Both the position numbers and the translations under genes were made by a program. A DNA stretch of 56,685 nucleotides from Candidatus Omnitrophota bacterium (GTDB lineage Bacteria > Omnitrophota > Gorgyraeia > 1-14-0-20-64-10), in contig JAMWCF010000003.1 of the NCBI GenBank assembly GCA_023818695.1, positions 1 through 56,685 of the forward strand. Reading direction: 5' to 3'. Shown in pieces: positions 2,382 to 19,013 of the stretch (within the stretch, counting starts at the first letter, position 1; each line of letters opens with the position of its first letter). A model generated the notes under the pieces. It was not told the DNA's origin, made no database searches, and saw only the letters and a program-made list of their open reading frames with translations.

Positions 2382-2747
2382 TCAATTAAGAATCCTGCTC
2401 GGCGTGGACGGCATCGACGCCCTGCTGCGGGCGGCCCAGGCAAACGGCAGGAAATACCGCCTGAAAGCGGCCTCCGTAGAGCCGTATTGATTGGACCCGT
2501 AGAAATAGTCGACGACGATCTCCCTTAACCGGGCGATCTCCTTCAGGCGGGCGAATCCCCAGGGGGTTTCCAGACTTAAATCAAGCAGCTCGAGAGCGCG
2601 ATCCACCGCCCTGGCGCAGTAATCCTGATTGTTCTTCCCGCGCCAATTCAGGGCGCGTTCAACTTCGCTGCCTATATTCGCCATCTGCTCAACAAGCGGC
2701 AGCTTACGCCATCGTCCTGACGCGAGTTCTCTATGCTGATAACTCAT
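2382..2747 (-). CDS. Small all-helical hypothetical protein, partner of the DUF5674 gene
   Basis: 121-aa ORF overlapping the upstream gene by 17 nt; EQMANIGSEVERA and ALELLDL helical pattern. Confidence 0.75.
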   Translation of the reverse strand: MSYQHRELASGRWRKLPLVEQMANIGSEVERALNWRGKNNQDYCARAVDRALELLDLSLETPWGFARLKEIARLREIVVDYFYGSNQYGSTEAAFRRYFLPFAWAARSRASMPSTPSRILN

Positions 2748-3087
2748 CTTTTATTCTCTTGGAAACAACGTCCGAAATTTTCTTCCGGATCGCTTCGCTC
2801 TCGACACCGCGACTCCTGTTATCCTGGGAAGGCCTCACGTTAATCATGGAATCAAACTCGATGAACTCCTCCCGCCCTTTCAACTCGGGATACAGGTTGA
2901 CGCCCCAGAGGAACTTCTGCTTGGATCCCCCTTCCAGGAGCAGAGCTTCCAAATCCGAATGCAACTCGGCATCAACCGCGAGGAGCTCATTCTCCACATC
3001 CACAACGGCTTTGACCATGTTACCGAATGTGCCGGCCGCCATTCGCCGAAGTTCGTCGAATGTTATCGCTTCCGAAATTATCTGCAC
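2731..3087 (-). CDS. DUF5674-like protein
   Basis: KAVVD...DAELHSDLEALLL.GS.Q..LWG.NLYP...IEFDSMIN.RP.Q.NRSR pattern recognised from memory; GTG start 4 nt after the ftsA stop. Confidence 0.7.
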   Translation of the reverse strand: MQIISEAITFDELRRMAAGTFGNMVKAVVDVENELLAVDAELHSDLEALLLEGGSKQKFLWGVNLYPELKGREEFIEFDSMINVRPSQDNRSRGVESEAIRKKISDVVSKRIKDELSA

Positions 3088-3091
3088 GGTC

Positions 3092-4315
3092 TTAAAAATA
3101 CTCTTCGAAGACCTGTTTGCTCTTTTCCAGGAAGCGGCGCCAGAGAGGGCCGGCCAGGGCCCTGCGGGAGGCGGCGATCCGGCGAGCGTTGTGGGCGAGC
3201 AGTCCCATGACGACGGTGTAGGCGGGCTTTAGCTCCAGGTCGGAATCCACCTCGATGCCGCGGGGGATCCCCAGTCGGACCGGCATGTTGAGGGCCTGTT
3301 CGCAGATCTCCAGGAACCCTTCCAGGCGAGCCAGCTCCCCGACCATCACGACGCCGGCGGCCGACTCCCGGAAATAGGGGATCTCCTCCAGCTTCCTGCG
3401 GATCTTCTCGAGGAACTCGTTGGATTTTTCGGACAGCAGGTGGGAGACCTGCTCCTGGGGGACGGTTCTCGCCAGCGTGCCGGCCTGCACCGTAAACGGC
3501 GTGGCTGCCCACTCCGGCTGTTTTTCGATCGTCTTGACCTGCTCGAAGATCTGCTCAGCGTTGGATTTCGGGAGTTTCAAGCTGCGGCTCATGCTGTCGG
3601 TGAGCTGTTCGATTCCCCACGGCAGGAGGACGCTCTCCTTGACGGCGCCGTCCGTATAAAGGAGGGTCTCGGTCTGAGACTCGCCGATATGGATCAGAGT
3701 AACGCCAAGATCCCTGTCGAGATCAGTCAGAACCGCCTCCCCGGCCGCCACCGACGGCAGGACGAACTGCTCCACCTCCACCCCGGCTCGGTTGACGACC
3801 TTCAGCAGATTGTGGACCGCCAGGTTCTGGGCCGTCACCAGGTGCAGCTCCACCCCCAGCTTGTTGCCGGAAAGCCCAACCGGATCCTTGATGCCGGCCT
3901 GGCCGTCCAGCGTGAAGCCGCGGGTGAAGGTATGGATGATCTGCCGGTCGTAGTCCAGCGAGAGGGTCTTGCAGGCGTTGACCACTTTCTCCACGTCCCG
4001 CCTGGAGATGCCGACGGTAGGATCCGGAATCGGGATGGCGGCGGAGGCGTTGTCAGCGGTCAAGGTGCTGCCCTGGATGGCGGTGTAAACTCGCAGGATC
4101 CGGGCGGACAGTTTTTTCTCGGTCTCCCGCACGAGCCGAGCGATGGTGTCGGAGCACTCGATCGGGTCGGTGATCAGCCCCCGCTCGATCCCCTGCGAGG
4201 GGACCGATTCCAGGGCGCGGACGATCAGCCGGTTCTGCTCGTGGATGAAGCCGGCGGCGAGGGTGAAGATCTTGTCACCCAGCGCCAAGCTGGCGATGAG
4301 CTGCGGTTTTTTCAT
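3092..4315 (-). CDS. ftsA: Cell division protein FtsA (divergent)
   Basis: Follows ftsQ; SQGIERGLITD and DPVGLSG.KL.VELHLVT motifs; C-terminal amphipathic helix WRRFLEKSKQVFEEYF. Confidence 0.85.
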   Translation of the reverse strand: MKKPQLIASLALGDKIFTLAAGFIHEQNRLIVRALESVPSQGIERGLITDPIECSDTIARLVRETEKKLSARILRVYTAIQGSTLTADNASAAIPIPDPTVGISRRDVEKVVNACKTLSLDYDRQIIHTFTRGFTLDGQAGIKDPVGLSGNKLGVELHLVTAQNLAVHNLLKVVNRAGVEVEQFVLPSVAAGEAVLTDLDRDLGVTLIHIGESQTETLLYTDGAVKESVLLPWGIEQLTDSMSRSLKLPKSNAEQIFEQVKTIEKQPEWAATPFTVQAGTLARTVPQEQVSHLLSEKSNEFLEKIRRKLEEIPYFRESAAGVVMVGELARLEGFLEICEQALNMPVRLGIPRGIEVDSDLELKPAYTVVMGLLAHNARRIAASRRALAGPLWRRFLEKSKQVFEEYF

Positions 4316-5079
4316 TTGTTGATCACCGGGTCGTCGAAGCGCAAGTCGATGTACTTCGCCTGCATTATCATCTCACGTTTCTGGATCAAAAGCTCAGTCA
4401 ACTGCTCCCACCCCCGGCGGACTTTCTCGGCGTGGAAACGGATCTCGGTGCCGTTGTTCAGGGCAATCAGGATGTCCGGTTCCCTGCAATAGGCGGCGGC
4501 GGCTGTCCGGCCCGCAACCCCGCGAAGCCGCTGGATGGCGGCCAGGATCTCGAACGTCTGCTGGTAGGCGGGGTTCTCGATCGTCTGGGAAACAGAAAGG
4601 CGCTTCCCCTTCAATCCGTCGGCGTGAAAGATCGGAAGATTCTGCCATGGGGTGGAGCGGCCCTCGGCCACAATGACCCCCTCTTCGCTCACCGGATAGA
4701 AGCGGCCGGCCTGCACCTGGGCGACGATCTGCCTGGGCTGCATCTGGACCACAATCCGGTTCGGGAAACAGCGGATTACCTGCGTCACTTGGGCGGTCGG
4801 GAAACGGCTCTGGAAAGCGGCCCCGATCTCCCGGAGGTCCCCCTCGAAGATGGAGATAACCGGCGTGATCTTGTATCGCTCCACCGGCTTCTTCATGGTG
4901 TCGGGCCAATGGATCTCCGCCTCCCGTACCAGGAAACGGGGGTGCGACGAAATGGTCTTCAATCCCATTGGGACAGCGATGAAAAGGAGGAGCCCGGAGA
5001 TCATGCTCATGCTGAAGAGCTTCACACCGCCGGGCGGCGCCTGCTGCGTCTCATTGAACAGATCCCTTTGCATCATCAT
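4312..5079 (-). CDS. ftsQ: Cell division protein FtsQ/DivIB
   Basis: Single TM, POTRA-like RCFPNRIVV, C-terminal YIDLRF; between ddl and ftsA. Confidence 0.85.
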   Translation of the reverse strand: MMMQRDLFNETQQAPPGGVKLFSMSMISGLLLFIAVPMGLKTISSHPRFLVREAEIHWPDTMKKPVERYKITPVISIFEGDLREIGAAFQSRFPTAQVTQVIRCFPNRIVVQMQPRQIVAQVQAGRFYPVSEEGVIVAEGRSTPWQNLPIFHADGLKGKRLSVSQTIENPAYQQTFEILAAIQRLRGVAGRTAAAAYCREPDILIALNNGTEIRFHAEKVRRGWEQLTELLIQKREMIMQAKYIDLRFDDPVINK

Positions 5080-6035
5080 AGGAGCGCGGAAGCCAGCATT
5101 CGCCGGCAGAGTTCCGGGAAACCGATCCCGGCCGCCTTGGCCGCTTTCGGCAGGAGACTCGACTCGGTCATACCGGGAATCGTATTGATCTCCAGGATCA
5201 CCGGTCCGCGGCCCGGCACCAGGATGAAATCAACGCGGGAAAAGGAGCGGCAGCCCAGCACTTCATGGGCTTTCAAGGCGATTTCCTGGACGCTCGCGGT
5301 CTCTTCTTTCGAGATCGGGGCCGGCACCCGGTACTCGGTCATGCCCGGCGTGTATTTGGCCTCGTAGTCGTAGAACCGGTTCTTGGGGATTACCTGCACC
5401 ACCGGCAGGGGCCGGTCCTCCAGGATGCCGACGGTCACCTCCGGCCCCGGCAGGTACTCTTCCAGGATAATCCTTTCGCCGAACTGGCCTGCCTTCTCGG
5501 CGGCCGGCGCCAGCTCCTCCATCGTGTCGACGATGCTCATCCCGATGGAGGAGCCCTGCCCCGCCGGCTTGACGACGATCGGGAAGACCATGTCTTTCGC
5601 CCGGGTCAGCGCGCTGATCGGCTCCGCCTCCACCACGTACGGCACCGGCAGCTTCGCGGCGATCCAGCGGCGGCGGGCGGAGATCTTGTCCATCGCGTAT
5701 CGGGAGGCCTCCACGTCGGAGCCGGTGTAAGGAATCTTCAGCTCCTCCAGGATCGACTGGACCGTCCCGTCCTCCCCGAAGGGACCGTGCAGGGCGATGA
5801 AGGCACACCGGATGCCGGAGAGCCGGATCTCATCCGGTATCTTCTCCGGATCGGAGGAAAGGGTCACCAACTCCGTGCGAATATCAAGGGAGCTCAGGGC
5901 TTCATGAACCGCTGTGCCGCTCTTGAGAGAAATCTCTCTCTCATGAGAGGGCCCTCCGCAGAGAACGCCGACGAGCCCCAAAGAAGCGATTGTCTTTTCG
6001 ACCGGAACCGTTGTCTGGTTGTTCTGTGTCGTCAT
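5076..6035 (-). CDS. ddl: D-alanine--D-alanine ligase
   Basis: GGPSHEREISLKSG, LHGPFGEDG, FYDYEAKY, LEINTIPG. Confidence 0.97.
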   Translation of the reverse strand: MTTQNNQTTVPVEKTIASLGLVGVLCGGPSHEREISLKSGTAVHEALSSLDIRTELVTLSSDPEKIPDEIRLSGIRCAFIALHGPFGEDGTVQSILEELKIPYTGSDVEASRYAMDKISARRRWIAAKLPVPYVVEAEPISALTRAKDMVFPIVVKPAGQGSSIGMSIVDTMEELAPAAEKAGQFGERIILEEYLPGPEVTVGILEDRPLPVVQVIPKNRFYDYEAKYTPGMTEYRVPAPISKEETASVQEIALKAHEVLGCRSFSRVDFILVPGRGPVILEINTIPGMTESSLLPKAAKAAGIGFPELCRRMLASALL

Positions 6036-6982
6036 TTTCCCTCGCTCTCATTTGGCAACACCTGCACCTCCAGCTCCAATTTTACACCGAAGCGGCGGTC
6101 CACCCGCGCCCGGATCTCTTCGATCAGCTTGAAGACGTCCGAGGCGCCGGCGCCGCCGGTGTTGATGATGAAATTGGAGTGGATCCTGGAAACGGACGCG
6201 CACCCTACGCTGAACCCTTTCAAGCCAGCCCGGTCGATGAGCCACCCGGCCGGCTGTTCCTTCGAAGGGTTCTTGAAAATGCACCCCGAGCTCGGCGCGG
6301 ACCAATCCTGGGTCCGCCGCTTGTATTCCCACAACCGCTTGACCCGGCCGGCAATCTCCTCCTTGTCGCCGGGGACAAGTTCCAACTCCGCCTCCAGCAC
6401 AATCGCCCCCTCCAAGCGGCTTGTCCGGTAGGCGAACCCCGCCAACTTCTTAGGGATGTGGCGGAGCTGTCCCTGGCGGTCCATCATTCGGATCGATCGG
6501 ACGACGTCCCCAGTCTGGTGAAGCGCCCCATCGTCGTCGTGCGTGCCGGCGTTCATCCGGACCGCGCCCCCCATCCTTCCCGGCACGCCGGCTAAGAACT
6601 CCAGGCCCGAAAGCCCCTCCTGCGTCGCCCGGCGGACCAGCCATTCCAGCGGCAGGCCGGCCCCCACGAACAGCCGGCTGCTCTCCCGCCGGCAGCCGTG
6701 GAAGAACGGATGCCCCATGTGAAGCACCAGGCCCGGGATACCCTCGTCCCGGACAAGCAGGTTGGCCCCTCCGCCGACGACGGTGACCGGCATCTTCTCC
6801 TGGTCGGCGATCGCCAGCAGCCGGCGCAACTCTTCCTCCGACTGCGGCTCCGCCCATACTTCCGCCGGCCCGCCGACGCGCATGGTGGTGTGCAGGCGCA
6901 TCGGCTCTGCGAACCGAACCCGGCCAGCTGTTACGGCCGTCAGCTCATCGGACAAGGCGGCTTTAAGCGGCACTTTCCACAA
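6032..6982 (-). CDS. murB: UDP-N-acetylmuramate dehydrogenase
   Basis: GGGANLL, GGAVRMNAG, SSGCIFKNP, HSNFIIN, LELEV. Confidence 0.97.
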   Translation of the reverse strand: MWKVPLKAALSDELTAVTAGRVRFAEPMRLHTTMRVGGPAEVWAEPQSEEELRRLLAIADQEKMPVTVVGGGANLLVRDEGIPGLVLHMGHPFFHGCRRESSRLFVGAGLPLEWLVRRATQEGLSGLEFLAGVPGRMGGAVRMNAGTHDDDGALHQTGDVVRSIRMMDRQGQLRHIPKKLAGFAYRTSRLEGAIVLEAELELVPGDKEEIAGRVKRLWEYKRRTQDWSAPSSGCIFKNPSKEQPAGWLIDRAGLKGFSVGCASVSRIHSNFIINTGGAGASDVFKLIEEIRARVDRRFGVKLELEVQVLPNESEGK

Positions 6983-8354
6983 GCTCCTTTTTTCCCGGAC
7001 CGGCTGCCAGCGCGCGGACCAGGCGGGTGGAGAGGGAACCGACCGACCCGGCCCCCAGGAAAAGAACCATGTCGCCGGACCGGGCCGTTTCCTCGAAGTA
7101 TTCCAGCGCTTCCTGCGGCTCCTTCAAGCAGACGCGGGGTCCGCCGTTGGCCCGAACCTGCTTCAGCACCGACCCGCTCGTCACCCCGTCGATCGGCTCT
7201 TCGGAGGCGGCGTAGATCGGAAGCAGGATCAGCTCATCGGCCTGGTCGAAACAGGAGCCGAACCGATCCAGCAGGTGGAGAGTCCGGCTGTAGCGGTGCG
7301 GCTGGAAAACGACCCGGATCCGCCGTCCCTTCCATTGTCTGGCCGCCTGCAGGGTGGCTTTGATTTCGGCGGGATGGTGGGCGTAATCCTCCACCACCAT
7401 GACGCCGCCCGGCTCGCCCTGAATCTGGAACCGCCGTTTGGTCCCCTTAAAATTCTCGACGGCGCGCACCGCATAGCTGAAGTCGATCTTCAGCCGGTCG
7501 GCCAAGGCGAAGACCGCCAAGCTGTTGAGCGCGTTGTGGAGGCCGGGCACGCTCAAGCGGACGCACCCCTGCTCTTTTCCCCTGACCAGGCATCGGAAAG
7601 AGCTCCATCCCGGCCCGGATTCCAGATCGCCGGCGGTGACGTCGGCCTTCTTCGAGAAACCGTAGGTGATCGCCGGCTTCCTCGTTTTTCGGACCAGCCC
7701 GGCGAGGTGGGGGTCATCCGCACAGGCGACCAGGAATCCCCCCGGCTTGATCCGGTCGATGAAAAGCGAATAGGCCTTTTTGATTTCAGCCAGGTTTCGG
7801 TAATAATCGAGGTGCTCTTCGTCCAGGTTGGTGATGACGGCGGCGAACGGATCGTACCAGAGGAAGGAGCCGTCCGATTCGTCCGCTTCGATGACGGCGT
7901 ACGCTCCTTTGCCGGTCCGGGCGTTGCCTCCCAGGGAATCGATCTGGGCTCCCAGCAGAACGGTCGGGTCCCAGCCGGCGGCGACCAAGAGCTGGGCCGC
8001 CAGCGCGGTGGTCGTGCTCTTGCCGTGCGCCCCGGTAACGGCAATGGTCTTCAACTCCTTCACGAGGCGGCGCACCATCCGGGCCCGGTGCAGGACGGTC
8101 AGCCCCTTCTCCCGAGCTGCCGCCAGTTCCGGGTTGGCGGGGGATATAGAGGAAGAGTAAACCACCGTGTCGGCGTCCCGGAGGGCCTGCGCCGAATGGC
8201 CGATGCGGATCCGGGCCCCGCGGGATTTGAGCTGCTCGATGATGGGCCCGTCGGAGGAGTCGGTCCCGGAAACGGATACCCCCCTGTCCAGGAGGAGCCG
8301 GGCGATGCCGCTCATCCCGATCCCGCCGATGCCGATCAGGTGCACCCGTTTCAT
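6963..8354 (-). CDS. murC: UDP-N-acetylmuramate--L-alanine ligase
   Basis: GIGGIGMSG, GAHGKSTTT, EADESD, DYAHHP. Confidence 0.97.
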   Translation of the reverse strand: MKRVHLIGIGGIGMSGIARLLLDRGVSVSGTDSSDGPIIEQLKSRGARIRIGHSAQALRDADTVVYSSSISPANPELAAAREKGLTVLHRARMVRRLVKELKTIAVTGAHGKSTTTALAAQLLVAAGWDPTVLLGAQIDSLGGNARTGKGAYAVIEADESDGSFLWYDPFAAVITNLDEEHLDYYRNLAEIKKAYSLFIDRIKPGGFLVACADDPHLAGLVRKTRKPAITYGFSKKADVTAGDLESGPGWSSFRCLVRGKEQGCVRLSVPGLHNALNSLAVFALADRLKIDFSYAVRAVENFKGTKRRFQIQGEPGGVMVVEDYAHHPAEIKATLQAARQWKGRRIRVVFQPHRYSRTLHLLDRFGSCFDQADELILLPIYAASEEPIDGVTSGSVLKQVRANGGPRVCLKEPQEALEYFEETARSGDMVLFLGAGSVGSLSTRLVRALAAGPGKKELVESAA

Positions 8355-9466
8355 CTCTCCCGCCCCTTGACCACCTTCTCCACCAGCCGCGCCAGTTTTT
8401 CCACCGCCGGCGTGCCGTTGGTGATGCCGGTCATCGCCTGGCGCATCTCCTCAAGCCGGCGCGGGGACCGAATAAGAGCGTTGATTCTCTTCCATAAATC
8501 GTAGGGGGCCAACTCCGATTGCTCCACCACGATCGCCCCCTGGCGCTGCGCCAGCCACCGGGCATTGGCCCTCTGGTGGCCGCCGGCATGCGGATAAGGG
8601 ATCAGGACCGCCGGCAGCCGGACGGCGGAGAGCTCGCTGATCGTGGTGGCGCCGGCCCTGGAGACCGCCAGGGTCGCCGCCGCGTAAGCCATCTCCATCT
8701 CCCGCAGAAATGGAAAGACGCGGGCCGGAACCCCCAGCAGGCGGTAAGCCTCCCGCAGTTTCTCCGGATCCTCCGAGCCGCACAGGTGGATCACCTGCAT
8801 CCCCGGTTCGTCGAAACCGGCCCTGGCCTCCCACATCTTCAGGATCGCGTCATTCACGGCGCGGGATCCCTGCGACCCGCCCATCACGAGCAGGACCGGC
8901 TCCTCCGATTCAAGCCCGAAAAATTGACGCGCCTCTCTGACCGTCACTTTCCCCTGGAAGGTCCTCAAGGGGTTGCCGGTCACCTCCACCCGGCAACCGC
9001 GGGGCAGATGCTCCCCTGTCTCTTTGAAGTGGACGGCGACCGCGTCGGCGAAACGGGCTAGCAGGCGGTTTGCCCCGCCCGGCAGAACATTTTGCTCATG
9101 AATCACCACCGGCAGGCGCGCCAATTTGGCCGCCACCAGAGCAACCGCGCTGATGTAGCCGCCGAAGCCGATTGCGGCAGCGGGCCGTTCCTTCCGGATG
9201 ACCTGCCGGATCCGCTGAAATCCCTTCCACTGGCCGACCCAGTAACCGGGCCACAGCCAGCGCAGGGAGGGCCGAACCGGCTTCAGGTCCACCCTCACCC
9301 ATTCTACCCCCGAGCCCTCCGACATCAAGCGGTCCACAGGCCTGGCGGTGCTCACCAGAACGCACCTGGCTGTCCGCTGAAGATGCTCCGCCAGCGCTAC
9401 GGCCGGCACCAGGTGCCCGCCGGACCCGCCGGCGACGATGAGGTATGTCGGCTTCAACGCTCCCAT
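8351..9466 (-). CDS. murG: Lipid II N-acetylglucosaminyl transferase
   Basis: GGSGGH, GFGGY, HEQN, GNP, GGSQG, RAGATT. Confidence 0.97.
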   Translation of the reverse strand: MGALKPTYLIVAGGSGGHLVPAVALAEHLQRTARCVLVSTARPVDRLMSEGSGVEWVRVDLKPVRPSLRWLWPGYWVGQWKGFQRIRQVIRKERPAAAIGFGGYISAVALVAAKLARLPVVIHEQNVLPGGANRLLARFADAVAVHFKETGEHLPRGCRVEVTGNPLRTFQGKVTVREARQFFGLESEEPVLLVMGGSQGSRAVNDAILKMWEARAGFDEPGMQVIHLCGSEDPEKLREAYRLLGVPARVFPFLREMEMAYAAATLAVSRAGATTISELSAVRLPAVLIPYPHAGGHQRANARWLAQRQGAIVVEQSELAPYDLWKRINALIRSPRRLEEMRQAMTGITNGTPAVEKLARLVEKVVKGRER

Positions 9467-10575
9467 TTGACCGGGCCTTTCGGAATCACCGCCGGCTGGG
9501 GCCGGCTGACATTGAGAAGGATCGCCACGCTGACCAGGTTCACCACCAGGGCCGACCCTCCGTAGCTGATGAACGGAAACGGCAATCCTTTCGTCGGGAT
9601 GGCGCCGGTGGCCACGCCGATATGCACCAGCGCCTCAAAAGCCAGCAGGAAAACGATTCCGTAGCCGGTGAAAGCGCCGAAGGTGTCCGGCGCCCTGGAG
9701 GCCAGGCGGATCCCGAACCAGACGAAAGCGGCCATCAGCAGGATGACGGCCGTCACGCCGAGCAGGCCCAGCTCTTCCCCCAGGACGGAGAAGATGAAAT
9801 CGGTGTGGGCCGCCGGCAGGTAAAAAAGCTTCTGCTTGGATTCCCCCAGCCCCACTCCCGCCACGCCGCCGGAACCGAGCGCCACCAGCGACTGGATCAG
9901 CTGGAAACCGGCCCCCTCCGGGTCGGCCCAGGGGTTCAGATAAGCGACGATCCGGCGGATCCGGTACGGTTTGAGGGCGATCAGACCCGCCACCACCGGC
10001 ACCGCCATCAGGGCCAAAGAGGCAAGCGCCTTCCCCTCCGCTCCGGCGATGAAAAGAAGAACCAGCGCGACGAAACCGATGGCCACCGCGGTCCCCAGGT
10101 CCGGCTCGGCCAGAATCAGGCAGACCACGCTGCCCAGGACAAGCAGGGGAGGCAGAACCCCCTGGAAGAAATCACCCAGGTGGGCCCGTTTCCGGTTGAG
10201 CACGTCGGCCAGGTAGATCAGCACCGCCAGCTGGGCGATCTCCGAGGGCTGAATGCTCACGGGACCCAGCCGGAACCACCGCCGGGCGCCCGACACCTTG
10301 GCGCCGATACCCGGCACCAGGACCGCCAGCAGAAGCAGGAGAGAGACGAGCAGCAGAGGCTTGGCCGCTTTGCGGATTTGCTGGGGATCCAATGTGAGAA
10401 TCCATCCCGAGAGGAACAGCCCGACGCACAGATACATCAGGTGGCGCCTCAAGAAAAATCCGGCGTCCTCGTAGACCTCCTTCGCGTAGATGGCGCTGGT
10501 GGAATAGACCATGATGACGCCGGTGACGACCAGCAGGGCGGTGGTGATCAGCAAACCGCGTCGGATTCCCTTCAC
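9454..10575 (-). CDS. ftsW: SEDS peptidoglycan polymerase FtsW
   Basis: GARRW, QPSE, EPDLG, LPAAHTDFIF, FISYGGS. Confidence 0.96.
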   Translation of the reverse strand: MKGIRRGLLITTALLVVTGVIMVYSTSAIYAKEVYEDAGFFLRRHLMYLCVGLFLSGWILTLDPQQIRKAAKPLLLVSLLLLLAVLVPGIGAKVSGARRWFRLGPVSIQPSEIAQLAVLIYLADVLNRKRAHLGDFFQGVLPPLLVLGSVVCLILAEPDLGTAVAIGFVALVLLFIAGAEGKALASLALMAVPVVAGLIALKPYRIRRIVAYLNPWADPEGAGFQLIQSLVALGSGGVAGVGLGESKQKLFYLPAAHTDFIFSVLGEELGLLGVTAVILLMAAFVWFGIRLASRAPDTFGAFTGYGIVFLLAFEALVHIGVATGAIPTKGLPFPFISYGGSALVVNLVSVAILLNVSRPQPAVIPKGPVKWER

Positions 10576-12005
10576 GGCCTTCCCCCTTCCAAAGGAAGCA
10601 GGGAGGCCGCGGCCGGCTCCTCCTTCATCAACTCCTCCACCGCCTCATGGAATTTTTCGCCCCTGTCCTCAAAATCCCTGAACATATCGAAGCTCGTGCA
10701 CATCGGCGACAGCAGAACCGATTCCCCCTCTTTCGCCATGCCGAAGGCGGTCCGAACCGCTTCCTTCAGGTCGGCCGCGAAGAAGGAGGGGACGACCCCG
10801 TGAAGAGCCCGGGCGATCGCGGACCCGTCCCGGCCAATCAGCACGGCACTCTTGAGCTTTTTGTCCCACTTCCGGATCAGCCGGAAATCGGATCCCTTGT
10901 CGATCCCGCCGGCTATCAGGATCACTTGCCCCGGCGTCGACTGGATCGCACTTAAACCGGCAGCGACGGTGGTCGACTTGGAATCGTTGATGAAGGTAAC
11001 TCCCTTGAACTGGCCGATCACCTGCTGGCGGTGTGCCAACCCCCTGAAGGAACGGATAACCTCCCCGCTGACCTCGGGCGGGACACCAAAGAGGCCGGCC
11101 AGACAGGCCGCGGCCAGGGCGTTCTCCTCATGGTGAGGCCCCTGCAGCTGCATGGCATCCCGCCGGCAGACGGTGCCGGAACGGTCCGGCAGGTTCAGAT
11201 AAAGGAAAGAGCCGTCGGACCAGGCCCCGCTCACCTTCTTTTTCCTGCTGAAAGAGACGGCGGTCCCTTTGACCAACGGCTTGAAGGAGCGGGAAGCGGG
11301 ATCATCCTCGTTGAGGAGCCCAAAACAGTGCCTCTTCTGAAAGGAAAAGATCCTCCCCTTCGCCTGCCGATACCGCTCGAACGTCCCATGGCGGTCGATG
11401 TGGTTCGTGGTGACGTTCAGAACGCAGGCGGCCTCCGGGGCGAAAGAAAGGGTCTCCTCCAGCTGGAAGGAGCTGACCTCCAGAACCACCACCGTGTTGT
11501 GACGGATCCGGTTGAGCTCCGCGGTGAACGGGGTCCCGATGTTCCCGCAAACCACGGTGTCAAACCCCGCCTTTTTGAAGATCTCGCTGGTCAGGGTGAC
11601 GACGGTCGATTTGCCGTTGGAGCCGGTGACCGCGATGATCCTCCCGGGGCAGTACCAGCTCGCCAGCTCCAGCTCCCCCACGACAGGGATCCCAAGCTCC
11701 CGGGCCCACCGAACCGGCGGCGCCTGCGGCGGCACGCCGGGACTGGTCACCAGGATCTGGGAATCCTCCACCATGCGCCGCGAATGTATTCCCAATTCGA
11801 CCGAGCCGCCCAAAGCGATGATCTCTTGCGCCGCTGAACTCAATTCGGGCGTCTCCTTCGCTTCCGTCACCCGGACGAAGCAGCCGAGCTGGATCAGCCA
11901 CTTGGCGGCGGCGAGACCGCTCTTAGCGAGCCCGACGACCGTTACCGGCGTCGCCGGCCCCGGCCGTAAAACAGCACCGCTTTTCATTCCCCCGCCCTTC
12001 TTCAT
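10572..12005 (-). CDS. murD: UDP-MurNAc-L-Ala--D-Glu ligase
   Basis: GLAKSG, TGSNGKST, EVSSFQL, NDSKST. Start at 12005 (ATGA overlap with the mraY stop) or 11987; the ORF-track start is too far upstream. Confidence 0.95.
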   Translation of the reverse strand: MKKGGGMKSGAVLRPGPATPVTVVGLAKSGLAAAKWLIQLGCFVRVTEAKETPELSSAAQEIIALGGSVELGIHSRRMVEDSQILVTSPGVPPQAPPVRWARELGIPVVGELELASWYCPGRIIAVTGSNGKSTVVTLTSEIFKKAGFDTVVCGNIGTPFTAELNRIRHNTVVVLEVSSFQLEETLSFAPEAACVLNVTTNHIDRHGTFERYRQAKGRIFSFQKRHCFGLLNEDDPASRSFKPLVKGTAVSFSRKKKVSGAWSDGSFLYLNLPDRSGTVCRRDAMQLQGPHHEENALAAACLAGLFGVPPEVSGEVIRSFRGLAHRQQVIGQFKGVTFINDSKSTTVAAGLSAIQSTPGQVILIAGGIDKGSDFRLIRKWDKKLKSAVLIGRDGSAIARALHGVVPSFFAADLKEAVRTAFGMAKEGESVLLSPMCTSFDMFRDFEDRGEKFHEAVEELMKEEPAAASLLPLEGGRP

Positions 12006-13093
12006 CGAAGTTTCAAAGTGCTCAAACTGATCAGCGCCAAAACCGCTCCGATGATCCAGAACCGGATGGTGACCTTTGACTCCGGCCACCCGATGAGCTG
12101 AAAATGGTGATGGATCGGCGTCATCAAAAAGATCCTTCTGCCGGTCAGCTTGAAAGAGGCGACCTGCAGGATGACCGACAGAGTCTCCATCACGAAGATT
12201 CCGCCGATGATCACCAGCAAAAGCTCTTTCTTGATCAGCACCGCGACCGAGCCGATGGCCCCCCCGATGGCCAGCGAGCCAACATCCCCCATGAAGACGT
12301 TGGCCGGCGGGGCGTTGTACCACAGGAACCCCATGCTGGCCCCCACCAGCGCGGCGCAAAAGATGGTCAGCTCCCCCGCCCCCGGGATGAACGGAATCAG
12401 CAGGTAGTCGGCCAGGATCTTATGGCCGGTCAGGTATGTCAGGACGGTCAGTGTCAAGCCGATCAGGATGGTGCAACCGATGGCCAGTCCGTCCAGCCCG
12501 TCGGTGAGATTCACGGCGTTGGTCGTTCCCACCAGCACCAGAAAGGCAAAAGGCATGTACCAATGCGCTAGATTGACGATAGAGTTCTTGACGAACGGGA
12601 TCTCCAGACTGGTCGGATAAGTCACGTCCAGAAGCAAAATCGTCAGGAACGCGACGGAGACCGTCCCCTGCCAGAAAAGCTTGGCACGGGAGCTCAACCC
12701 TTTTGAATTCTCTCTTCTGACTTTCAAAAGATCGTCCCAGAAACCGATCGCCCCGAAAGCAACCGTCACCCCCATCGCCAGGAGGAGCTTCAGGTTCAGG
12801 AAAGCCCCCCAGAGAAAGCTGGAGCCCAGCAGGGCCAGCAGAATCAGCAGCCCCCCCATGGTGGGGATCCCGTGTTTGTGGCTGTGCAGGTGATAAAGAC
12901 CCCTCACCTCCTCCTCCTGCCGGATATGCTGGCCCATCTTCAGTTCGGTCAGCCAACGGATCACCCAGGGAGCCAGGATGAGGGTGAGGAAAAAAGCGGT
13001 GACGGCCGCCATCGCGGCCCGGAAGGTGATGTACTTGAAAACGTTGAAACCGAACCAGAGGTCTCTTAATGAATAGAAGATGTAATAGAGCAT
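12002..13093 (-). CDS. mraY: Phospho-MurNAc-pentapeptide transferase
   Basis: PTMGG, DDLLK, NAVNLTDGLDG, FMGDVGS, PIHHHF; start trimmed to MLYYIF. Confidence 0.97.
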   Translation of the reverse strand: MLYYIFYSLRDLWFGFNVFKYITFRAAMAAVTAFFLTLILAPWVIRWLTELKMGQHIRQEEEVRGLYHLHSHKHGIPTMGGLLILLALLGSSFLWGAFLNLKLLLAMGVTVAFGAIGFWDDLLKVRRENSKGLSSRAKLFWQGTVSVAFLTILLLDVTYPTSLEIPFVKNSIVNLAHWYMPFAFLVLVGTTNAVNLTDGLDGLAIGCTILIGLTLTVLTYLTGHKILADYLLIPFIPGAGELTIFCAALVGASMGFLWYNAPPANVFMGDVGSLAIGGAIGSVAVLIKKELLLVIIGGIFVMETLSVILQVASFKLTGRRIFLMTPIHHHFQLIGWPESKVTIRFWIIGAVLALISLSTLKLR

Positions 13094-14457
13094 AACAGGA
13101 TCCGTTCCATCCGCATCGCCCGGGAGCCCTTGACCAACAGCGCGTCCCCGGGCCGGATGAGCTCCTCCAGAAATTCTTTCGCCTGTTCCACGTCGTCGAA
13201 GGAAATCACCCGTTCCGTCGGCATGCCGGCGGAACGGGCCGCCGCCGCGGTGTGGCGGCTCAAACTCCCCACCGTCATCAGGAAATCGGCGTCCGCCTCT
13301 TTCACCCATACGCCCGCCTGCTGATGGAAAGATTCGGCCTGCCGGCCCAGCTCCAGCATGTCGCCAATCACGGCAATTCGCCTGCCGGTGCAGACCGTCT
13401 GGCGGAAAACCTCCAGCGCCGCCCGCAGAGAGGTCGGATTGGCGTTGTAGGAATCGTCGATCACCAGAAAACCTCCCTGCTGCGTCAGGGAGACACGCCC
13501 GGGAACCGGCTGAAAGCTCTCCAACCGGCCGGCCGCCTGCTCAAGCGGAATTCCGGTCGCCTGGGCGGCCGCCAGAGCCGCCAGCGCGTTCATCAGATTG
13601 TGCCGGCCGGGAACCGGCAGATGCATCCTCCAGACGCCGTTGATGAAAGAGACCGATCCGGCGGCGGTCAACTGGACTTTCTCCGCCCGGACGGCGGAGT
13701 CCGCATGGTTCCCGAACCAGATAAGCCGGTGCGACAGGCGGACTCCTGCCTCCAGGAGAAGGGGATCTTCGGCGTTCAAAACAAGGGAGGCGGTCGGCTT
13801 CATGGTCTCCCACAGTTCCCCCTTGGCCTTGAGCACCCCATGAAGGTCCCCGAACGTTTCCAGGTGGGCATAGCCGATGTTGGTCACCACCCCGATGGTC
13901 GGCTTAGCGATCCGGGTCAGAGAACGGATCTCCCCCCATTGGTTCGTTCCCAGTTCCAGAACGACGGCCTGATGCTCCGCTCGAAGCTTCAGCAGATTCA
14001 AAGGGACGCCGATCAAATTGTTCTGCGTCCCTTCCGTCGCCAGAACCCGCAGCCGCTGCGAGAGGATGTGAGCCAGCATTCCCTTGGTCGTCGTCTTGCC
14101 AGCGGAACCGGTGACGGCGATGACCGGAACATCGAACCGCCGGCGGTGGAAGGCGGCCAGGTTCCCCAAAGCGGCCAGCGTGTCCTGCACCTGCCAAATC
14201 TCCACTCCGCCCGGAACGGTGAATCCTTTCACGGGCCAGCGGTCCACGACGGCGCCGGCGGCCCCCTTGCTGAAGGCCTCCTGAAGAAAATCGTGTCCAT
14301 CCAGCCGTTTGCCGTGGATGGCAACATAAAGCTCGCGGGGCCGAATCGTCCGAGTATCGATGGAAACACCCAGGAGAGGGCTCCTGCCATCTCCCGCGAT
14401 CCGGGTCCCGCCGATGGCTGCCGTGATGTCGGCCGATTGAAAGAGGGCCCTATGCAT
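13066..14457 (-). CDS. murF: UDP-MurNAc-tripeptide--D-Ala-D-Ala ligase
   Basis: TGSAGKTTTK, DDSYNANP, GDMLELG, KGSR. Confidence 0.97.
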   Translation of the reverse strand: MHRALFQSADITAAIGGTRIAGDGRSPLLGVSIDTRTIRPRELYVAIHGKRLDGHDFLQEAFSKGAAGAVVDRWPVKGFTVPGGVEIWQVQDTLAALGNLAAFHRRRFDVPVIAVTGSAGKTTTKGMLAHILSQRLRVLATEGTQNNLIGVPLNLLKLRAEHQAVVLELGTNQWGEIRSLTRIAKPTIGVVTNIGYAHLETFGDLHGVLKAKGELWETMKPTASLVLNAEDPLLLEAGVRLSHRLIWFGNHADSAVRAEKVQLTAAGSVSFINGVWRMHLPVPGRHNLMNALAALAAAQATGIPLEQAAGRLESFQPVPGRVSLTQQGGFLVIDDSYNANPTSLRAALEVFRQTVCTGRRIAVIGDMLELGRQAESFHQQAGVWVKEADADFLMTVGSLSRHTAAAARSAGMPTERVISFDDVEQAKEFLEELIRPGDALLVKGSRAMRMERILLCSITSSIH

Positions 14458-15943
14458 TCGAGCCGACCCCCGAGAGCTTGCTTTTCTTCAGAATATCCCG
14501 CGCGACGTGCCGGTCGTCGAACGGAATCACCTTGTCCCCTATCTTCTGGCCGGTCTCATGGCCTTTGCCGGCGATCAGCACCAGCCAGCCGGCATCGGCC
14601 GACTCGATCGCCTTTCGGATCGCCTCCCTTCTGTCCAAAATCGTTTCCCAGGGGGTCGAAGAACCCCACAGCCCCTGCTCGATCTCTTTGGCGATCCGGG
14701 CCGGATCTTCGCTGCGGGGATTATCCGAGGTAACAATCACCCTGTCGGCCAGCTCCGAAGCGACCTTCCCCATCCGGGGCCTCTTGGTCCGGTCCCGGTC
14801 GCCGCCGCAGCCGAAAACCAGCAGGACCTTCTTCGGGGTGACCGCCTTCACGTTGGCCAGGACCTGGAAAAGGGCATCGTCGGTGTGGGCGTAATCCACG
14901 AAAACAGGGAAAGGCCCTCCCTCATCCACCCTCTCCAGCCGACCCGGAACGCCGGAAAAAGATTCCACCGCCGGGATCACTTTCGAAAGAGGCGTGCCGG
15001 TCCCCATGACGGCGCCGAGAGAGGCCAGCAGGTTCTGAATGTTGTGGCGTCCGACCAGCTTCCATCGCACCGGGAAAGATCCCTCCGGCGTCTGGACTTC
15101 GCAGGTGGTCCCGTCCAGCCGGCAGACGATCTTCGAAGCGGCCAGGTCCGCCTCCTGCCGCAGACTGTAGCGGATCACCCGTCCGCGAGTGACCCAGCGG
15201 ATCCTTTCCCATACCGGATCGTCCCCGTTGATCACCGCCGCGGCCTGCGGCTCCAGCGCTTCGAAGAGGCGCAGCTTGGCCTTGAAATAATCCTCCCATG
15301 TCTCGTGATAATCCAGGTGCTCGGATGTGATATTCGTGAAAACGCCGGCTTTCCAGGAGATCCCGTCGGTCCGGCGCTGGTGGAGAGCGTGCGAGGAAAC
15401 CTCCATCACGCAGGCCTTCAGACCGGCCTGAAGCATCTCGTACAGCATCGATTGAATCGTCACGGCGCCGGGGGTCGTGTTGACCGATTCCTTCATGACC
15501 GGTCCAATCTGGTAATGGATGGTCCCGATCAGTCCGCAGTGGACGCCGGCCGCTTCCAGGAGGTACCGCGTCAGCCACGAAACCGTCGTTTTCCCGTTGG
15601 TGCCGGTCACACCGACCACAGCCATTTTGTCGGATGGGTTCCCGTAAAAGGAGGAGGCCACAGGGCCCAAAAGCGGCTGGGTGGCCGGAACCCGGATGAC
15701 GACCATACCGCCGGGGGCTTGGGCCTCCCTGTCGACCAAAACGGCGCGGGCTCCCTTCGCCGCCGCCTGTTCGATGAACCGGTGACCGTCGGTTTTCGTC
15801 CCGCCGACCGCCACGAACAGGGCCCCTTCGCGCACCTGCCTGGAATCATCCGTGACCTGCGTGACTGTCAGCCCGGCATGAACTCCCGCCTCGATGCCGA
15901 CGCCGCTCAGCAACTCTCCGAGCGCAACGGCCGGCCTATTCAT
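14450..15943 (-). CDS. murE: UDP-MurNAc-dipeptide--meso-DAP ligase
   Basis: TGTNGKTT, MEVSSH, DYAHT, DNPR (meso-DAP-type specificity motif), AGKGHE. Confidence 0.97.
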   Translation of the reverse strand: MNRPAVALGELLSGVGIEAGVHAGLTVTQVTDDSRQVREGALFVAVGGTKTDGHRFIEQAAAKGARAVLVDREAQAPGGMVVIRVPATQPLLGPVASSFYGNPSDKMAVVGVTGTNGKTTVSWLTRYLLEAAGVHCGLIGTIHYQIGPVMKESVNTTPGAVTIQSMLYEMLQAGLKACVMEVSSHALHQRRTDGISWKAGVFTNITSEHLDYHETWEDYFKAKLRLFEALEPQAAAVINGDDPVWERIRWVTRGRVIRYSLRQEADLAASKIVCRLDGTTCEVQTPEGSFPVRWKLVGRHNIQNLLASLGAVMGTGTPLSKVIPAVESFSGVPGRLERVDEGGPFPVFVDYAHTDDALFQVLANVKAVTPKKVLLVFGCGGDRDRTKRPRMGKVASELADRVIVTSDNPRSEDPARIAKEIEQGLWGSSTPWETILDRREAIRKAIESADAGWLVLIAGKGHETGQKIGDKVIPFDDRHVARDILKKSKLSGVGSNA

Positions 15944-17654
15944 CCGATCTCGCCATCATGAAATGCTGGCTCTGATAAGGAACCTGGAGATAGCCCAGCG
16001 TATCAGCCGCCACCTTCTTGAAAACCGGAGCGGCCACCACGCCGCCGTAATAGACCGGCCGGGGCTCATCCAGCACCACCACGATCGTCAGTCTCGGTTT
16101 TTCCACCGGCACAAAACCGATAAAGGAAGCCATGAATTTGGAATGGGAATACCCGCCCGTTGGTTCGATCTTTTGCGCGGTCCCGGTTTTACCGGCCGAC
16201 CGGTATCCTGGAACGGCCGCCATCTTGCCGGTCCCTTCCTCCACGACCCCGGCCAAAATCTCCTTCAATTCAGCTGCCACAGCCGATGGGATGACCCTCC
16301 GGACCGCCTCCGGCCGGCTGCTGTGGACCAGTGCGCCGGAAGGGTCCCGGATTTCCTTAATAATATACGGCTTCATCAGCACCCCTCCGTTGGCCACCAC
16401 GGAGATCGCCTGGGCCAACTGCATCGCGGTAACCGTCACCTCCTGCCCCATCGGGATGGCGGTGATGGAAGTCTTTGACCATTCCATCGGCGTTTTCGCG
16501 ATCCCGGCCACCTCCCCCGGCAGGCCCACACCGGTCGGCATACCGAACCCGAAGGCCTTGATCCCCTGATAAAGAGAAGCAGGCCCCAGCCGCATCGCCA
16601 CCTTGGCCGTCCCGATATTGCTGGAATTCGTGATCACCTGCCGGAATGTCAGCCATCCGTGCGGCATATGGTCATGAAGGATGTGTCCCCCGGGAATCGG
16701 GAACTCCCCGTTTTCGCAGAAAAACCGGTCCGTCGGCCGAACCACCCCCTTGCCAAGCGCGGTGGCGGCCGTTATCACTTTGAAGACGGAGCCGGGCTCG
16801 AACATGTCGGTCACGGCCCGGTTGCGCCGGTGATCCGCGTCGGCCTTGGAAAAAAGGTTCGGGTCGAAGGTGGGGCGGTTGGCGAGAGCGAGAACCTCCC
16901 CCGTGAACGGATCCATCACCACCACGCATCCTCCCTTGGCGTTTCGTTCTTCGAAAGCCCGCTCCAGTTCTTGTTCCGCGAAGAACTGGATGGTGGAGTC
17001 GACCGTCAGCACCAGATGGAGCCCGTCCCTGGGAGCCACCGCCGGCGCCTCCCAGGCCCCGACCGACCTTCTGCGGGCATCCCGCGCCATCCACCGCCAG
17101 CCGGGCTCTCCTCTCAAGATCTGGTTATAAGCCAGCTCCAATCCTTCCAACCCCACGGTATCCATATCGGTGCAGCCGATCACGTGGCTGGCGAGGTAGC
17201 CCTGCGGATAAACGCGCCGGGGTTCCATCACCAGGTCCACGCCCGGCAGTCTCATCCGGCGGATCAGCGAGGCGGTCTGGTTGGGAATCCGCCTGGCCAG
17301 CCAGACGAAGCCCCGCTCTTTATTGGAGAGCTTCGCCAGAAGTTCATCGACCGGCTGGTTTAAAACCGGGGCCAGGCGCCGGGCGATCCTCTGCGGGTCC
17401 TTGACATGCCTGGGATTGGCGAAAACGGAGGTCAGGCGAATGGAGACGGCCAGCGGCTTCCCGTTCCTGTCCAGAATATCCCCCCGTACCGGGAGGAGCT
17501 CCAGCATCTGGAAATGCTGCCGCCTGGCGATAGTCAGCCAATGGTCGGGGTGGAGAACCTGAAGCCAGAACAAACGGCCCCATAGGAGGCAGGTGATCAT
17601 GAGAAATCCCATGACCACGAAAAACAGGCGGGTTTTCTGGGCCGTGGTCAACAC
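15936..17654 (-). CDS. ftsI: Class B penicillin-binding protein (PBP3)
   Basis: RGDILDRNG, GSVFK (SxxK), SSN, KTGT; likely GTG/TTG start near 17654, exact start uncertain. Confidence 0.93.
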   Translation of the reverse strand: MLTTAQKTRLFFVVMGFLMITCLLWGRLFWLQVLHPDHWLTIARRQHFQMLELLPVRGDILDRNGKPLAVSIRLTSVFANPRHVKDPQRIARRLAPVLNQPVDELLAKLSNKERGFVWLARRIPNQTASLIRRMRLPGVDLVMEPRRVYPQGYLASHVIGCTDMDTVGLEGLELAYNQILRGEPGWRWMARDARRRSVGAWEAPAVAPRDGLHLVLTVDSTIQFFAEQELERAFEERNAKGGCVVVMDPFTGEVLALANRPTFDPNLFSKADADHRRNRAVTDMFEPGSVFKVITAATALGKGVVRPTDRFFCENGEFPIPGGHILHDHMPHGWLTFRQVITNSSNIGTAKVAMRLGPASLYQGIKAFGFGMPTGVGLPGEVAGIAKTPMEWSKTSITAIPMGQEVTVTAMQLAQAISVVANGGVLMKPYIIKEIRDPSGALVHSSRPEAVRRVIPSAVAAELKEILAGVVEEGTGKMAAVPGYRSAGKTGTAQKIEPTGGYSHSKFMASFIGFVPVEKPRLTIVVVLDEPRPVYYGGVVAAPVFKKVAADTLGYLQVPYQSQHFMMARSDE

Positions 17655-17698
17655 GTTGAAAAACCAAAGATCCTTTTTTCCGCAAAAGAACCGAGAAG

Positions 17699-18094
17699 CT
17701 ACTCTTCGTGCGCCGGCTTCGCCTGTGCCTGCCGGTTGATTCCCAAGATACTCGTCGCCGCTTTCCTGGCCAACTGAAGCCACATCGGCCGTCCGGATGC
17801 CTGGGCTCTCTGCGTGGAAACAGGGCTTTGAATGGCTTCAGCGCGCAAAACTTCGATCTGTTGTGGCGGGTTGAGTTGAATGTCCCTGCGCTCCAGCCGC
17901 TTGCTCAAGATGACGGGGGATCGGAGCGTTAGAACATTGTAATGGAGCACCCTGTGCTGGTCAAGGAGCTCGTCCTTGAGCTGTCGCAGGCGCTCGACCC
18001 GGTAGCCATCCTCCACCAGCATCACCCGTTGCTGAACGTATCCCAGACAAAACACAGTTGTCACCGTCAAAACTGAAAAGAAGGAGCGGATCAT
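17699..18094 (-). CDS. ftsL: Cell division protein FtsL-like
   Basis: TM plus coiled coil (GYRVERL...L.SP..L) between rsmH and ftsI. Confidence 0.8.
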   Translation of the reverse strand: MIRSFFSVLTVTTVFCLGYVQQRVMLVEDGYRVERLRQLKDELLDQHRVLHYNVLTLRSPVILSKRLERRDIQLNPPQQIEVLRAEAIQSPVSTQRAQASGRPMWLQLARKAATSILGINRQAQAKPAHEE

Positions 18095-18984
18095 GGGGCG
18101 GTCCCTGACCTTTCGGCGATCCGCAGGTTCGCCGACCTGGCCCTGGAATTCCGGGCCACTTCCGCCTCGGCGGGAACCACCGGCCTGGCGGTGATCATTT
18201 TCAACTGGCCGGCCCTTGTCCGGTCTCTGAAAACGTTCCTCACGATACGGTGCTCCAGCGAGTGATAGGACAGCACGGCGATGCGCCCGCCCTCCCGGAG
18301 ATGATCGATCGCCTGGTTCAATCCGGACGGCAGAAGCTCCAGCTCTTTATTGACGGCGATCCGAATCGCCTGAAAGGAACGGGTCGCCGGATTGATCCTT
18401 CCCCGGCGGGCGGTGGGCGGAACGGCCTTTCGGATTGTTTCCGCCAGCACCCCGGTCGTGGCAAACGGCCGCTCTTTGACGATCGCCCTGGCGATGCGGC
18501 CGGCCCACCGCTCCTGGCCGTACAACCTCAACAGTTCTTCCAGATCCCTGGCTGAAATCCGGTTGACCAGCTCGGCCGCCGAAAAACCGCTGTGGGGATC
18601 CATCCGCATGTCCAGAGGGCCGTCCGCCTTGAAGCTGAAACCCCTCTGCGGCCGGTCCAGCTGCAAAGAGGAAACCCCCAGGTCGAACAAAACGGCGTCG
18701 ACCTTCCCCACCTTCAGCCGGTTGAGAAGTTCCGAAATCTTTCCAAAATCCGAATGAATCAGCGTCATCCGCCCACCATACTTTTGAAGCCGTTTCTCCG
18801 CCGCTTCCAGCGCCTCTTTGTCCCGGTCGATGCCGATCAACCGTCCGTCAGGACCAGCTGACTCTAAAAGGGCTTGCGCGTGCCCGCCCAAACCGATGGT
18901 TGCGTCAAGAACAACGCCGCCAGGGCGAACTGCCAGGCCCGATACGACTTCATGAAGCAAAACCGGTTTATGAACGATCTCCAC
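18091..18984 (-). CDS. rsmH: 16S rRNA m4C1402 methyltransferase
   Basis: HKPVLL, DATIGLGGH, DLGVSSLQLD, NSRARSA. Confidence 0.97.
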   Translation of the reverse strand: MEIVHKPVLLHEVVSGLAVRPGGVVLDATIGLGGHAQALLESAGPDGRLIGIDRDKEALEAAEKRLQKYGGRMTLIHSDFGKISELLNRLKVGKVDAVLFDLGVSSLQLDRPQRGFSFKADGPLDMRMDPHSGFSAAELVNRISARDLEELLRLYGQERWAGRIARAIVKERPFATTGVLAETIRKAVPPTARRGRINPATRSFQAIRIAVNKELELLPSGLNQAIDHLREGGRIAVLSYHSLEHRIVRNVFRDRTRAGQLKMITARPVVPAEAEVARNSRARSANLRIAERSGTAP

Positions 18985-19013
18985 ACGGCTCCCTTACCTC
19001 CTCAAGCGCGCTC

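Follow-up and report, generated by a model that had tools for sequence, protein, structure and literature searches.

What can the actin homologue FtsA still do in a bacterium where its partner FtsZ cannot be found and where its own ATP site has been rebuilt? The question is raised by ftsA on a 56,685-nucleotide stretch of DNA from a Candidatus Omnitrophota bacterium (positions 1-56,685 of contig JAMWCF010000003.1, assembly GCA_023818695.1); the whole of this stretch is referred to here as the window. In model bacteria the roles of FtsA, as tether of FtsZ, in an ATP cycle, in membrane remodelling and in the recruitment and activation of the late divisome, are hard to separate, and the window protein, an FtsA without FtsZ and probably without ATP, offers a natural test case. 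A preliminary description of the DNA had noted three degenerate nucleotide-binding motifs in this FtsA, proposed that the protein is ATP-independent or repurposed, and drawn a link to the FtsZ-less division of other lineages of the Planctomycetes-Verrucomicrobia-Chlamydiae (PVC) group.

FtsA identity and its nucleotide-binding motifs

The window protein is an orthologue of FtsA in which each of the four subdomains (1A, 1C, 2A and 2B) is present. The NCBIfam FtsA equivalog TIGR01174 matched it at 239.4 bits against a cut-off of 175.85, over profile positions 2-369 of 371, and the Pfam SHS2_FTSA and FtsA domains were both found. The pilM model TIGR01175 gave only 33.6 bits against a cut-off of 133, and a real PilM-PilN pair lies elsewhere in the genome (L003). 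A structure predicted with AlphaFold2 (AF2) from a 79-sequence alignment had a mean predicted local distance difference test score (pLDDT) of 89.1 and a predicted template modelling score of 0.87, with pLDDT dropping to ~73 at residues 261-280 in subdomain 2B. Its best Foldseek matches in the PDB were all FtsA (7Q6G, 7Q6D, 7Q6F and 7Q6I; TM-score 0.78-0.88 over ~385 columns), followed by the T. maritima and S. aureus FtsAs, and PilM and MreB ranked only below these. When a second, canonical FtsA paralogue was searched for in the genome, the remaining actin-fold matches were MreB and PilM only; the former has canonical motifs and adjoins MreC, and the latter adjoins PilN. The features of the gene, in window coordinates, are:

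3092..4315, minus strand: ftsA coding sequence, 407 amino acids (TIGR01174, Pfam SHS2_FTSA and FtsA, AF2 and Foldseek)
4268..4291, minus strand: remodelled phosphate-1 motif, residues 9-16, SLALGDKI (canonical G-L-[DE]-I-G-[TS]-x-K)
3833..4072, minus strand: subdomain 1C (SHS2 insert), residues 82-161, which replaces 1B of actin (PF02491, E=1.2e-21)
3668..3697, minus strand: remodelled phosphate-2 motif, residues 207-216, LIHIGESQTE (canonical L-x-D-I-G-G-G-T-T-D)
3419..3628, minus strand: subdomain 2B, residues ~230-299, retained (AF2 helices and strands at 235-310)
3329..3352, minus strand: remodelled adenosine motif, residues 322-329, VVMVGELA (canonical V-V-L-T-G-G-x-[SA])
3095..3151, minus strand: C-terminal amphipathic helix, putative membrane-targeting sequence, GPLWRRFLEKSKQVFEEYF (AF2 helix 391-406)

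The strings LALGDKI, HIGESQT and MVGELA, which the preliminary description had quoted as the degenerate motifs, occur exactly in the translation. In a phmmer alignment with E. coli FtsA (7Q6D), LEIGTAK aligned to LALGDKI, VVDIGGGTMD to LIHIGESQTE and VLTGGAAQ to VMVGELAR, and two independent MAFFT alignments of different sequence sets gave an identical register of the motifs. In the AF2 model strands 5-12 and 16-24 flank the phosphate-1 loop (residues 13-15), and strands 205-210 and 215-221 the phosphate-2 loop (211-214). Since the nucleotide loops are in their expected places, the residues are not merely shifted, and the concern that the catalytic residues might be present at displaced positions found no support.

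In canonical FtsA the phosphates of the nucleotide are held by backbone amides of the loop glycines, the second glycine of the adenosine motif gives the ribose and phosphates room, and the phosphate-2 Asp coordinates the metal. Both acidic residues are lost from the window protein, as had been claimed: A11 stands at the position of E. coli E14, and H209 at that of D210. In phosphate-1 the Thr is further replaced by Asp and the Lys by Ile. The glycine pairs said to be missing are indeed broken: phosphate-2 has lost its second and third glycines, and the adenosine motif its second. In E. coli FtsA the side chains of E14, S84, A188 and D210 are 2-8 Å from the active-site Mg, and the substitutions E14R, S84L, A188V and D210A each abolish complementation in vivo (Morrison et al. 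2023, PMC10213515); at these four positions the window protein has Ala11, Gln81, Pro187 and His209. Scored as the count of 11 canonical motif positions kept, the window protein reaches 3/11 and its family 2-6. Among 173 cluster representatives of FtsA outside the family, 110 score 11, 28 score 10 and only one scores 5 or less.

The rest of the protein looks intact. The open frame is full length (407 codons), and the membrane-targeting helix, earlier described as preserved, is predicted as an amphipathic helix at residues 391-406. The tail has a hydrophobic moment of 0.69, a value matched by 2.3% of shuffles; its end, ...LEEYF, is kept across the family and resembles canonical tails (...W.F.[DE][LF]F), the pattern W..[FL]......[FL][DE]E[YL]F being common to the family and to canonical FtsA. 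The window FtsA is thus presumably still anchored to the membrane via this tail.

Conservation and origin of the remodelled site

Alignment with FtsAs from related genomes showed that the remodelling is common to ~52 homologues (45-74% identity), retrieved by a search of 5.8 billion proteins, and that it is conserved in its new form; the named homologues are "Candidatus Omnitrophica", and the family counts below are out of 51 or 52, according to the alignment used. The phosphate-2 Asp is never Asp in this family. It is Arg in 38-39 members (38/51), with His in the window. The glycine that follows DIG (position 212) is Glu or Asp in 49/51, and the phosphate-2 Thr has become Gln214 in 44-45 members (44/51). 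The second glycine of the adenosine motif is kept in just 3/52 and is otherwise Pro, Glu, His or Ser, with no conservation. Phosphate-1 has the family consensus GLELGxRQF, in which the canonical Lys is replaced by Gln, His or Glu and a basic residue (Arg/Lys15) stands one position ahead of it. Newly conserved positions are Arg15 (37/51), Arg330 (39/51) and Glu332 (41 Glu and 10 Asp), the last two directly downstream of the adenosine motif. The phosphate-1 acid is missing only from the window protein and from the two or three sequences closest to it, in which Arg209 has also given way to His or Tyr.

A check of the ratio of nonsynonymous to synonymous substitution rates (dN/dS), proposed in the preliminary description, gave 0.22 for ftsA against the nearest genome (67% protein identity). 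For the same genome pair the neighbouring genes gave 0.14 (ddl), 0.21 (murB), 0.33 (murC), 0.31 (murG) and 0.40 (ftsQ), so that ftsA falls in the range of its mur neighbours; all of these values are rough, because dS is about 1.1-1.7. For ftsA the NG86 and LWL85 methods gave 0.22-0.26 at dS ~1.1, where synonymous sites are saturated. The identity of FtsA to its counterpart in the nearest genome equals that of Ddl and MurB, and the conservation of each subdomain inside the family equals that inside canonical FtsA (2B within-family 0.64). Between the two consensus sequences, identity was 0.49 in 2A-N, 0.40 in 1C, 0.23 in the N-terminal 1A and 0.19 in 2B; 2A-N and 1C are thus closest to canonical FtsA, and 2B, which in canonical FtsA is the lobe that binds the FtsZ peptide, is most diverged. 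The window ftsA is under purifying selection comparable to that on its mur neighbours, and the remodelling is a family trait and no sign of a broken gene.

These data bear on the possibility that selection on ftsA has been relaxed after loss of FtsZ and that the gene is a decaying relic, heading for loss as in Chlamydiota and most Planctomycetota. Such decay would fit the varying degree of motif erosion across the phylum, including a second family eroded independently (see below). It would also fit two damaged copies: one relative in the family has ftsA in two adjacent pieces, and another genome of the phylum carries an in-frame TAA in the gene (G013:C100:1399-2661 and G295:C179:1824-2858), which reflect either errors of assembly or sequencing or, now and then, genuine inactivation. 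Against decay stand the ~50 homologues with full-length open frames, the presence of FtsA in every genome sampled (see below), the low dN/dS, the match of FtsA identity to that of Ddl and MurB, and a level of subdomain conservation equal to that of canonical FtsA, with the altered positions themselves conserved. The conservation data largely refute the relic explanation, and we consider it very improbable.

A maximum-likelihood tree of 59 Omnitrophota FtsAs and 8 outgroups placed the change in time. The family of the window protein (f1; n=19 in the tree, 3-5/11 motif positions) is sister, with support 99, to a family from the same order (f2) that retains DIGTHQ, DIGGSHTD and TGGT (8/11). As the motifs of the sister are near-canonical, their loss is placed on the f1 stem. 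This stem is long (0.59) and branches within f1 are short, a pattern that marks a shift in function with subsequent stabilisation. All Omnitrophota FtsAs in the tree sample are on long branches, and none has 11/11 motif positions.

Other variants were seen in the same FtsZ-less phylum. Family f21 (L025 and L141; genomes G040 and G064) has a still more eroded nucleotide site, which reads GLDISEDFVT / IFIFISYSATHI / AGDLTSLG and scores 2/11; its replacements (DISEDFV, IFISYSATH and AGDLTS) are unlike those of f1. Because f21 branches outside f1 and f2, and f2 still bears the motifs, the erosion in f21 is independent. In genomes of f22, f23 and f17 (for example, G049:C1:1013-1708 and G246:C42:22990-23697) the FtsA model matches positions 2 to ~235 only, in open frames of ~360-386 amino acids, which suggests that the C-terminal half (2B/2A) has been lost or become unrecognisable. 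The family of the window protein shares with f21 and the short variants its background and the erosion of its nucleotide motifs; unlike the short variants, it keeps all four subdomains.

FtsZ in Omnitrophota and the genes around ftsA

Searches for the canonical partner of FtsA covered 301 Omnitrophota genomes, 270 of them at least 90% complete and some in 1-10 contigs. The genome of the window itself comprises 937 kb in 5 contigs and is 61% complete. FtsZ (TIGR00065) was found neither in this genome nor in 41 relatives, nor anywhere in the phylum sample (0/301). No tubulin Pfam match exceeded its cut-off (0/301), the sole match being a 17-bit fragment with an internal stop, and in a set of 101 Omnitrophota genomes both ZapA (0/101) and MinC (0/101) were undetected. 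FtsA, on the other hand, was found in 301/301 genomes at E<=1e-5, 164 of them above the FtsA cut-off. The link to FtsZ-less division in PVC bacteria, drawn in the preliminary description, was thus supported at the level of the phylum. FtsA E-values spanned 1e-14 to 1e-95 across Omnitrophota. MreB was above its cut-off in 100/101 genomes, at ~500-530 bits (E ~1e-150 to 1e-160), and the constraint on the two actin homologues thus differs greatly in the FtsZ-less phylum.

The absence of FtsZ from Omnitrophica is already known from the literature: Pende et al. (2021) listed the group as FtsZ-less (PMC8178401). Other accounts are at odds with this. Rivas-Marin et al. (2016) reported FtsZ for 'Omnitrophica bacterium OLB16' alone and left the other genomes undecided (PMC5147048), a 2025 survey placed Omnitrophota among the phyla with 'highly conserved' division and cell wall (dcw) genes (PMC12283558), and a 2025 review named planctomycetes as the sole free-living bacteria without FtsZ (PMC12673574). 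In the main Omnitrophota genomics paper neither FtsZ nor FtsA is mentioned (PMC10066038), and our literature search found no paper on remodelling of the FtsA nucleotide site. Our count of 0/301 agrees with the first of these sources and contrasts with the three that follow it.

One might suppose from the OLB16 report, the 'highly conserved' grouping and the incompleteness of the window genome that an FtsZ is present and still tethered by the window FtsA, and was missed through extreme divergence or gaps in the metagenome-assembled genomes (MAGs). The same search, however, found FtsZ in 13/14 model genomes used as a control, and in 15/15 MAGs from other phyla, which were reached via their FtsA loci and included Patescibacteria of 0.7-0.9 Mb, as against 0/2 Omnitrophota in that set. 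Together with the failure of both the FtsZ model and the tubulin Pfam in 301 genomes that are mostly near-complete, the absence of ZapA and MinC, the divergence of 2B and the agreement with Pende et al., these controls make a missed FtsZ scarcely credible.

The genes on either side of ftsA are as follows:

19014..19451, minus strand: mraZ
17699..18094, minus strand: 131-amino-acid open reading frame (ORF) between rsmH and ftsI
4312..19451, minus strand: dcw operon 5' of ftsA (ORF calls and Pfam; murG, murC, murB and ddl by homology to L034/L035 and cluster order)
4312..5079, minus strand: ftsQ
2731..3087, minus strand: DUF5674 gene (Pfam E=3e-35)
2382..2747, minus strand: 121-amino-acid ORF without a family match

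The ftsA gene ends a complete dcw operon, every gene of which is on the minus strand, in the order mraZ, rsmH, the 131-amino-acid ORF, ftsI, murE, murF, mraY, murD, ftsW, murG, murC, murB, ddl, ftsQ, ftsA. Its start codon overlaps the stop codon of ftsQ (ATGA), and the ftsQ-ftsA order is the same in relatives. The 131-amino-acid ORF has no Pfam match and occupies the position of ftsL; it is probably a divergent FtsL. In the window murB and ddl are separate genes with a 4-nt overlap, and in the closest relative (that with 67% FtsA identity; L034 3286-5220) they form one 644-amino-acid frame, a MurB-Ddl fusion.

No conserved gene occupies the ftsZ slot 3' of ftsA in relatives. In the window, the DUF5674 gene begins 4 nt past the ftsA stop and is overlapped by the 121-amino-acid ORF, and the pair looks operonic with ftsA. 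We considered the two as a stand-in for FtsZ and rejected them: they have no tubulin or actin signature, and in the two nearest genomes with long contigs other genes follow ftsA, one for an AAA-type ATPase and one transposase-like.

With its canonical partner gone, FtsA might have been repurposed outside division altogether, for cell shape, for pili or attachment, or for host interaction in these possibly host-dependent nanobacteria, and have kept its dcw position by inertia. The long branches of all Omnitrophota FtsAs, and the modest number that pass the FtsA cut-off, would suit such a role. Yet in the window as in relatives ftsA closes an intact dcw operon and is coupled to ftsQ in translation; 1C, to which FtsN binds in Vibrio FtsA, is among the two subdomains nearest to canonical FtsA, and the Vibrio structure 7Q6I is among the best structural matches; and separate PilM-PilN and MreB-MreC pairs are available for other jobs. 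We regard a role outside division as improbable.

A proposed role without nucleotide, and known systems

Our best reading, which we hold with moderate confidence, is that the window FtsA is a nucleotide-independent, membrane-anchored scaffold of a Z-ring-free divisome. The phylum has lost FtsZ and its accessory proteins and has kept peptidoglycan synthesis, FtsQ, FtsW and FtsI, MreB and FtsA. On the f1 stem the Mg-ATP site of FtsA was rebuilt: the metal-coordinating Asp turned into Arg (His in the window), the glycine-rich phosphate loops gained Glu/Asp, Phe and Gln, the Gly-Gly of the adenosine motif was left without its second glycine, and new Arg and Glu residues arose around the cleft. The window FtsA most likely no longer binds or hydrolyses Mg-ATP, because bulky acidic and aromatic residues replace the phosphate-loop glycines, a residue other than glycine stands at the adenosine glycine, and the charge of the Asp is reversed. 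Where the nucleotide used to sit, an internal network of the new Arg, Glu and Gln residues, with salt bridges such as those of Arg209 with Glu11 or Glu216, may now tie lobe 1A to lobe 2A. Such an Arg-Glu staple across the cleft is conceivable from the E. coli structure, where the equivalents of Arg209 and Glu11 are both within a few ångströms of the Mg ion. The C-terminal amphipathic helix would give the protein its seat on the membrane, and through 1C it would dock the cytoplasmic tails of the operon-encoded FtsQ, FtsL-like protein, FtsI and FtsW, or regulate them. The earlier proposal of an ATP-independent or repurposed FtsA is supported by every computational test made, namely by a motif loss conserved throughout the family, by purifying selection, by the intact fold and tail and by the lack of detectable FtsZ in the phylum, with ATP independence itself the inferred part.

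We also asked whether Arg209 and the phosphate-1 acid are lost together, which would have supported the salt bridge. The three sequences without the acid are also without the Arg, but they form one clade and hence represent a single event, which makes them unusable as evidence.

Several points weigh against a nucleotide-free scaffold. Loss of ATP binding is read from the sequence alone, and part of the site persists: the first glycine of each motif is kept, as are Thr215 and Glu216 of phosphate-2, and most of the family has the phosphate-1 Glu, as in E. coli. Arg15, Arg209 and Arg330 around the cleft could bind an anionic ligand without a metal. The window lineage has replaced both partners of the staple (His209 and Ala11), so that the staple cannot fully account for the site there. 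The role of FtsA in FtsZ-free division is assumed from the position of its gene in the operon, and, because the window genome is incomplete, statements on its gene content lean on relatives.

The persisting glycines and Thr215/Glu216, and the conserved arginines, would also be expected if the pocket had been re-tooled, with Arg15, Arg209 and Arg330 binding a nucleotide independently of metal, or another anion, so that FtsA would act as a ligand-regulated switch. GTP, (p)ppGpp, a cyclic dinucleotide, polyphosphate or a lipid head group are candidate ligands. Replacements at these positions and at Gln214 are conserved and non-random, at the frequencies given above, and the reversal of charge from Asp to Arg is what would be expected if the side chain had taken over the phosphate contacts of Mg. 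What speaks against a ligand site is that bulky Glu/Asp and Phe residues take the place of the phosphate-binding glycines, that the position of the second adenosine glycine is not conserved, that the new acids equal the new bases in number, which internal salt bridges fit better, and that the window protein has His, not Arg, at 209. We judge a re-tooled pocket unlikely.

The f1 protein sets apart whatever role FtsA has without FtsZ and ATP, which would most plausibly be signalling to FtsQLB-FtsWI through 1C. Single substitutions in the active site are lethal in E. coli (PMC10213515), and f1 FtsA, with its whole site rebuilt, is conserved as strongly as the Mur enzymes. The phylum provides a comparative series of its own, in which f2 is near-canonical, f1 is rebuilt and another family has eroded independently. 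A bolder extension, which we offer only tentatively and think less probable than not, is that Omnitrophota represent a third independent PVC route to Z-ring-free division, in which neither FtsZ nor MreB alone but FtsA would organise the septal peptidoglycan synthase from the cytoplasm. The f1 FtsA would then be a pseudo-actin in which a network of Arg and Glu residues replaces Mg-ATP and locks the cleft, so that the protein assembles on the membrane and constitutively engages FtsQ/L/W/I with no nucleotide cycle. Were this so, the FtsZ-tethering and ATPase functions of FtsA would be separable from, and dispensable for, activation of the divisome.

Among known systems, the window protein is most like canonical FtsA, represented by the structures from E. 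coli (7Q6D), Vibrio maritimus (7Q6F/7Q6I), Xenorhabdus (7Q6G), Thermotoga maritima (1E4G/4A2A) and S. aureus (3WQT), with which it shares the profile, fold, 1C insert, position after ftsQ and tail. In the Vibrio protein 1C is the subdomain that binds FtsN. The window protein differs from canonical FtsA in its few remaining motif positions, in the strong divergence of 2B, in the lack of an FtsZ partner in its phylum, and in a former ATP cleft lined by new conserved Arg, Glu and Gln.

The nearest structural relative after FtsA is PilM (P. aeruginosa 5EOU and T. thermophilus 2YCH). PilM has an FtsA-like fold and works as a static scaffold in the cytoplasm, where it clamps the N-terminal peptide of its bitopic membrane partner PilN. 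It differs, however, in that it still binds ATP or ADP, having been crystallised with nucleotide, and has no membrane helix, and the genome has its own PilM-PilN pair. TsaB/YeaZ is a pseudo-enzyme of the ASKHA/actin fold that has given up nucleotide binding for a role as structural partner. TsaB, though, belongs to another subfamily and process and is a paralogue beside an active enzyme, whereas the window FtsA is the only FtsA of its genome.

In Chlamydiota, FtsZ-less division is organised by MreB, RodZ and FtsK. Omnitrophota resemble Chlamydiota and Planctomycetota as PVC bacteria that have no FtsZ and keep peptidoglycan genes, FtsQ/W/I and MreB (PMC5147048, PMC12283558). All or most members of both groups have also lost FtsA (PMC8178401, PMC12673574). 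Omnitrophota do not show such joint loss of FtsZ and FtsA, and the retention of FtsA in every genome sampled suggests that here FtsA, more than MreB alone, may organise the cytoplasmic side of division.

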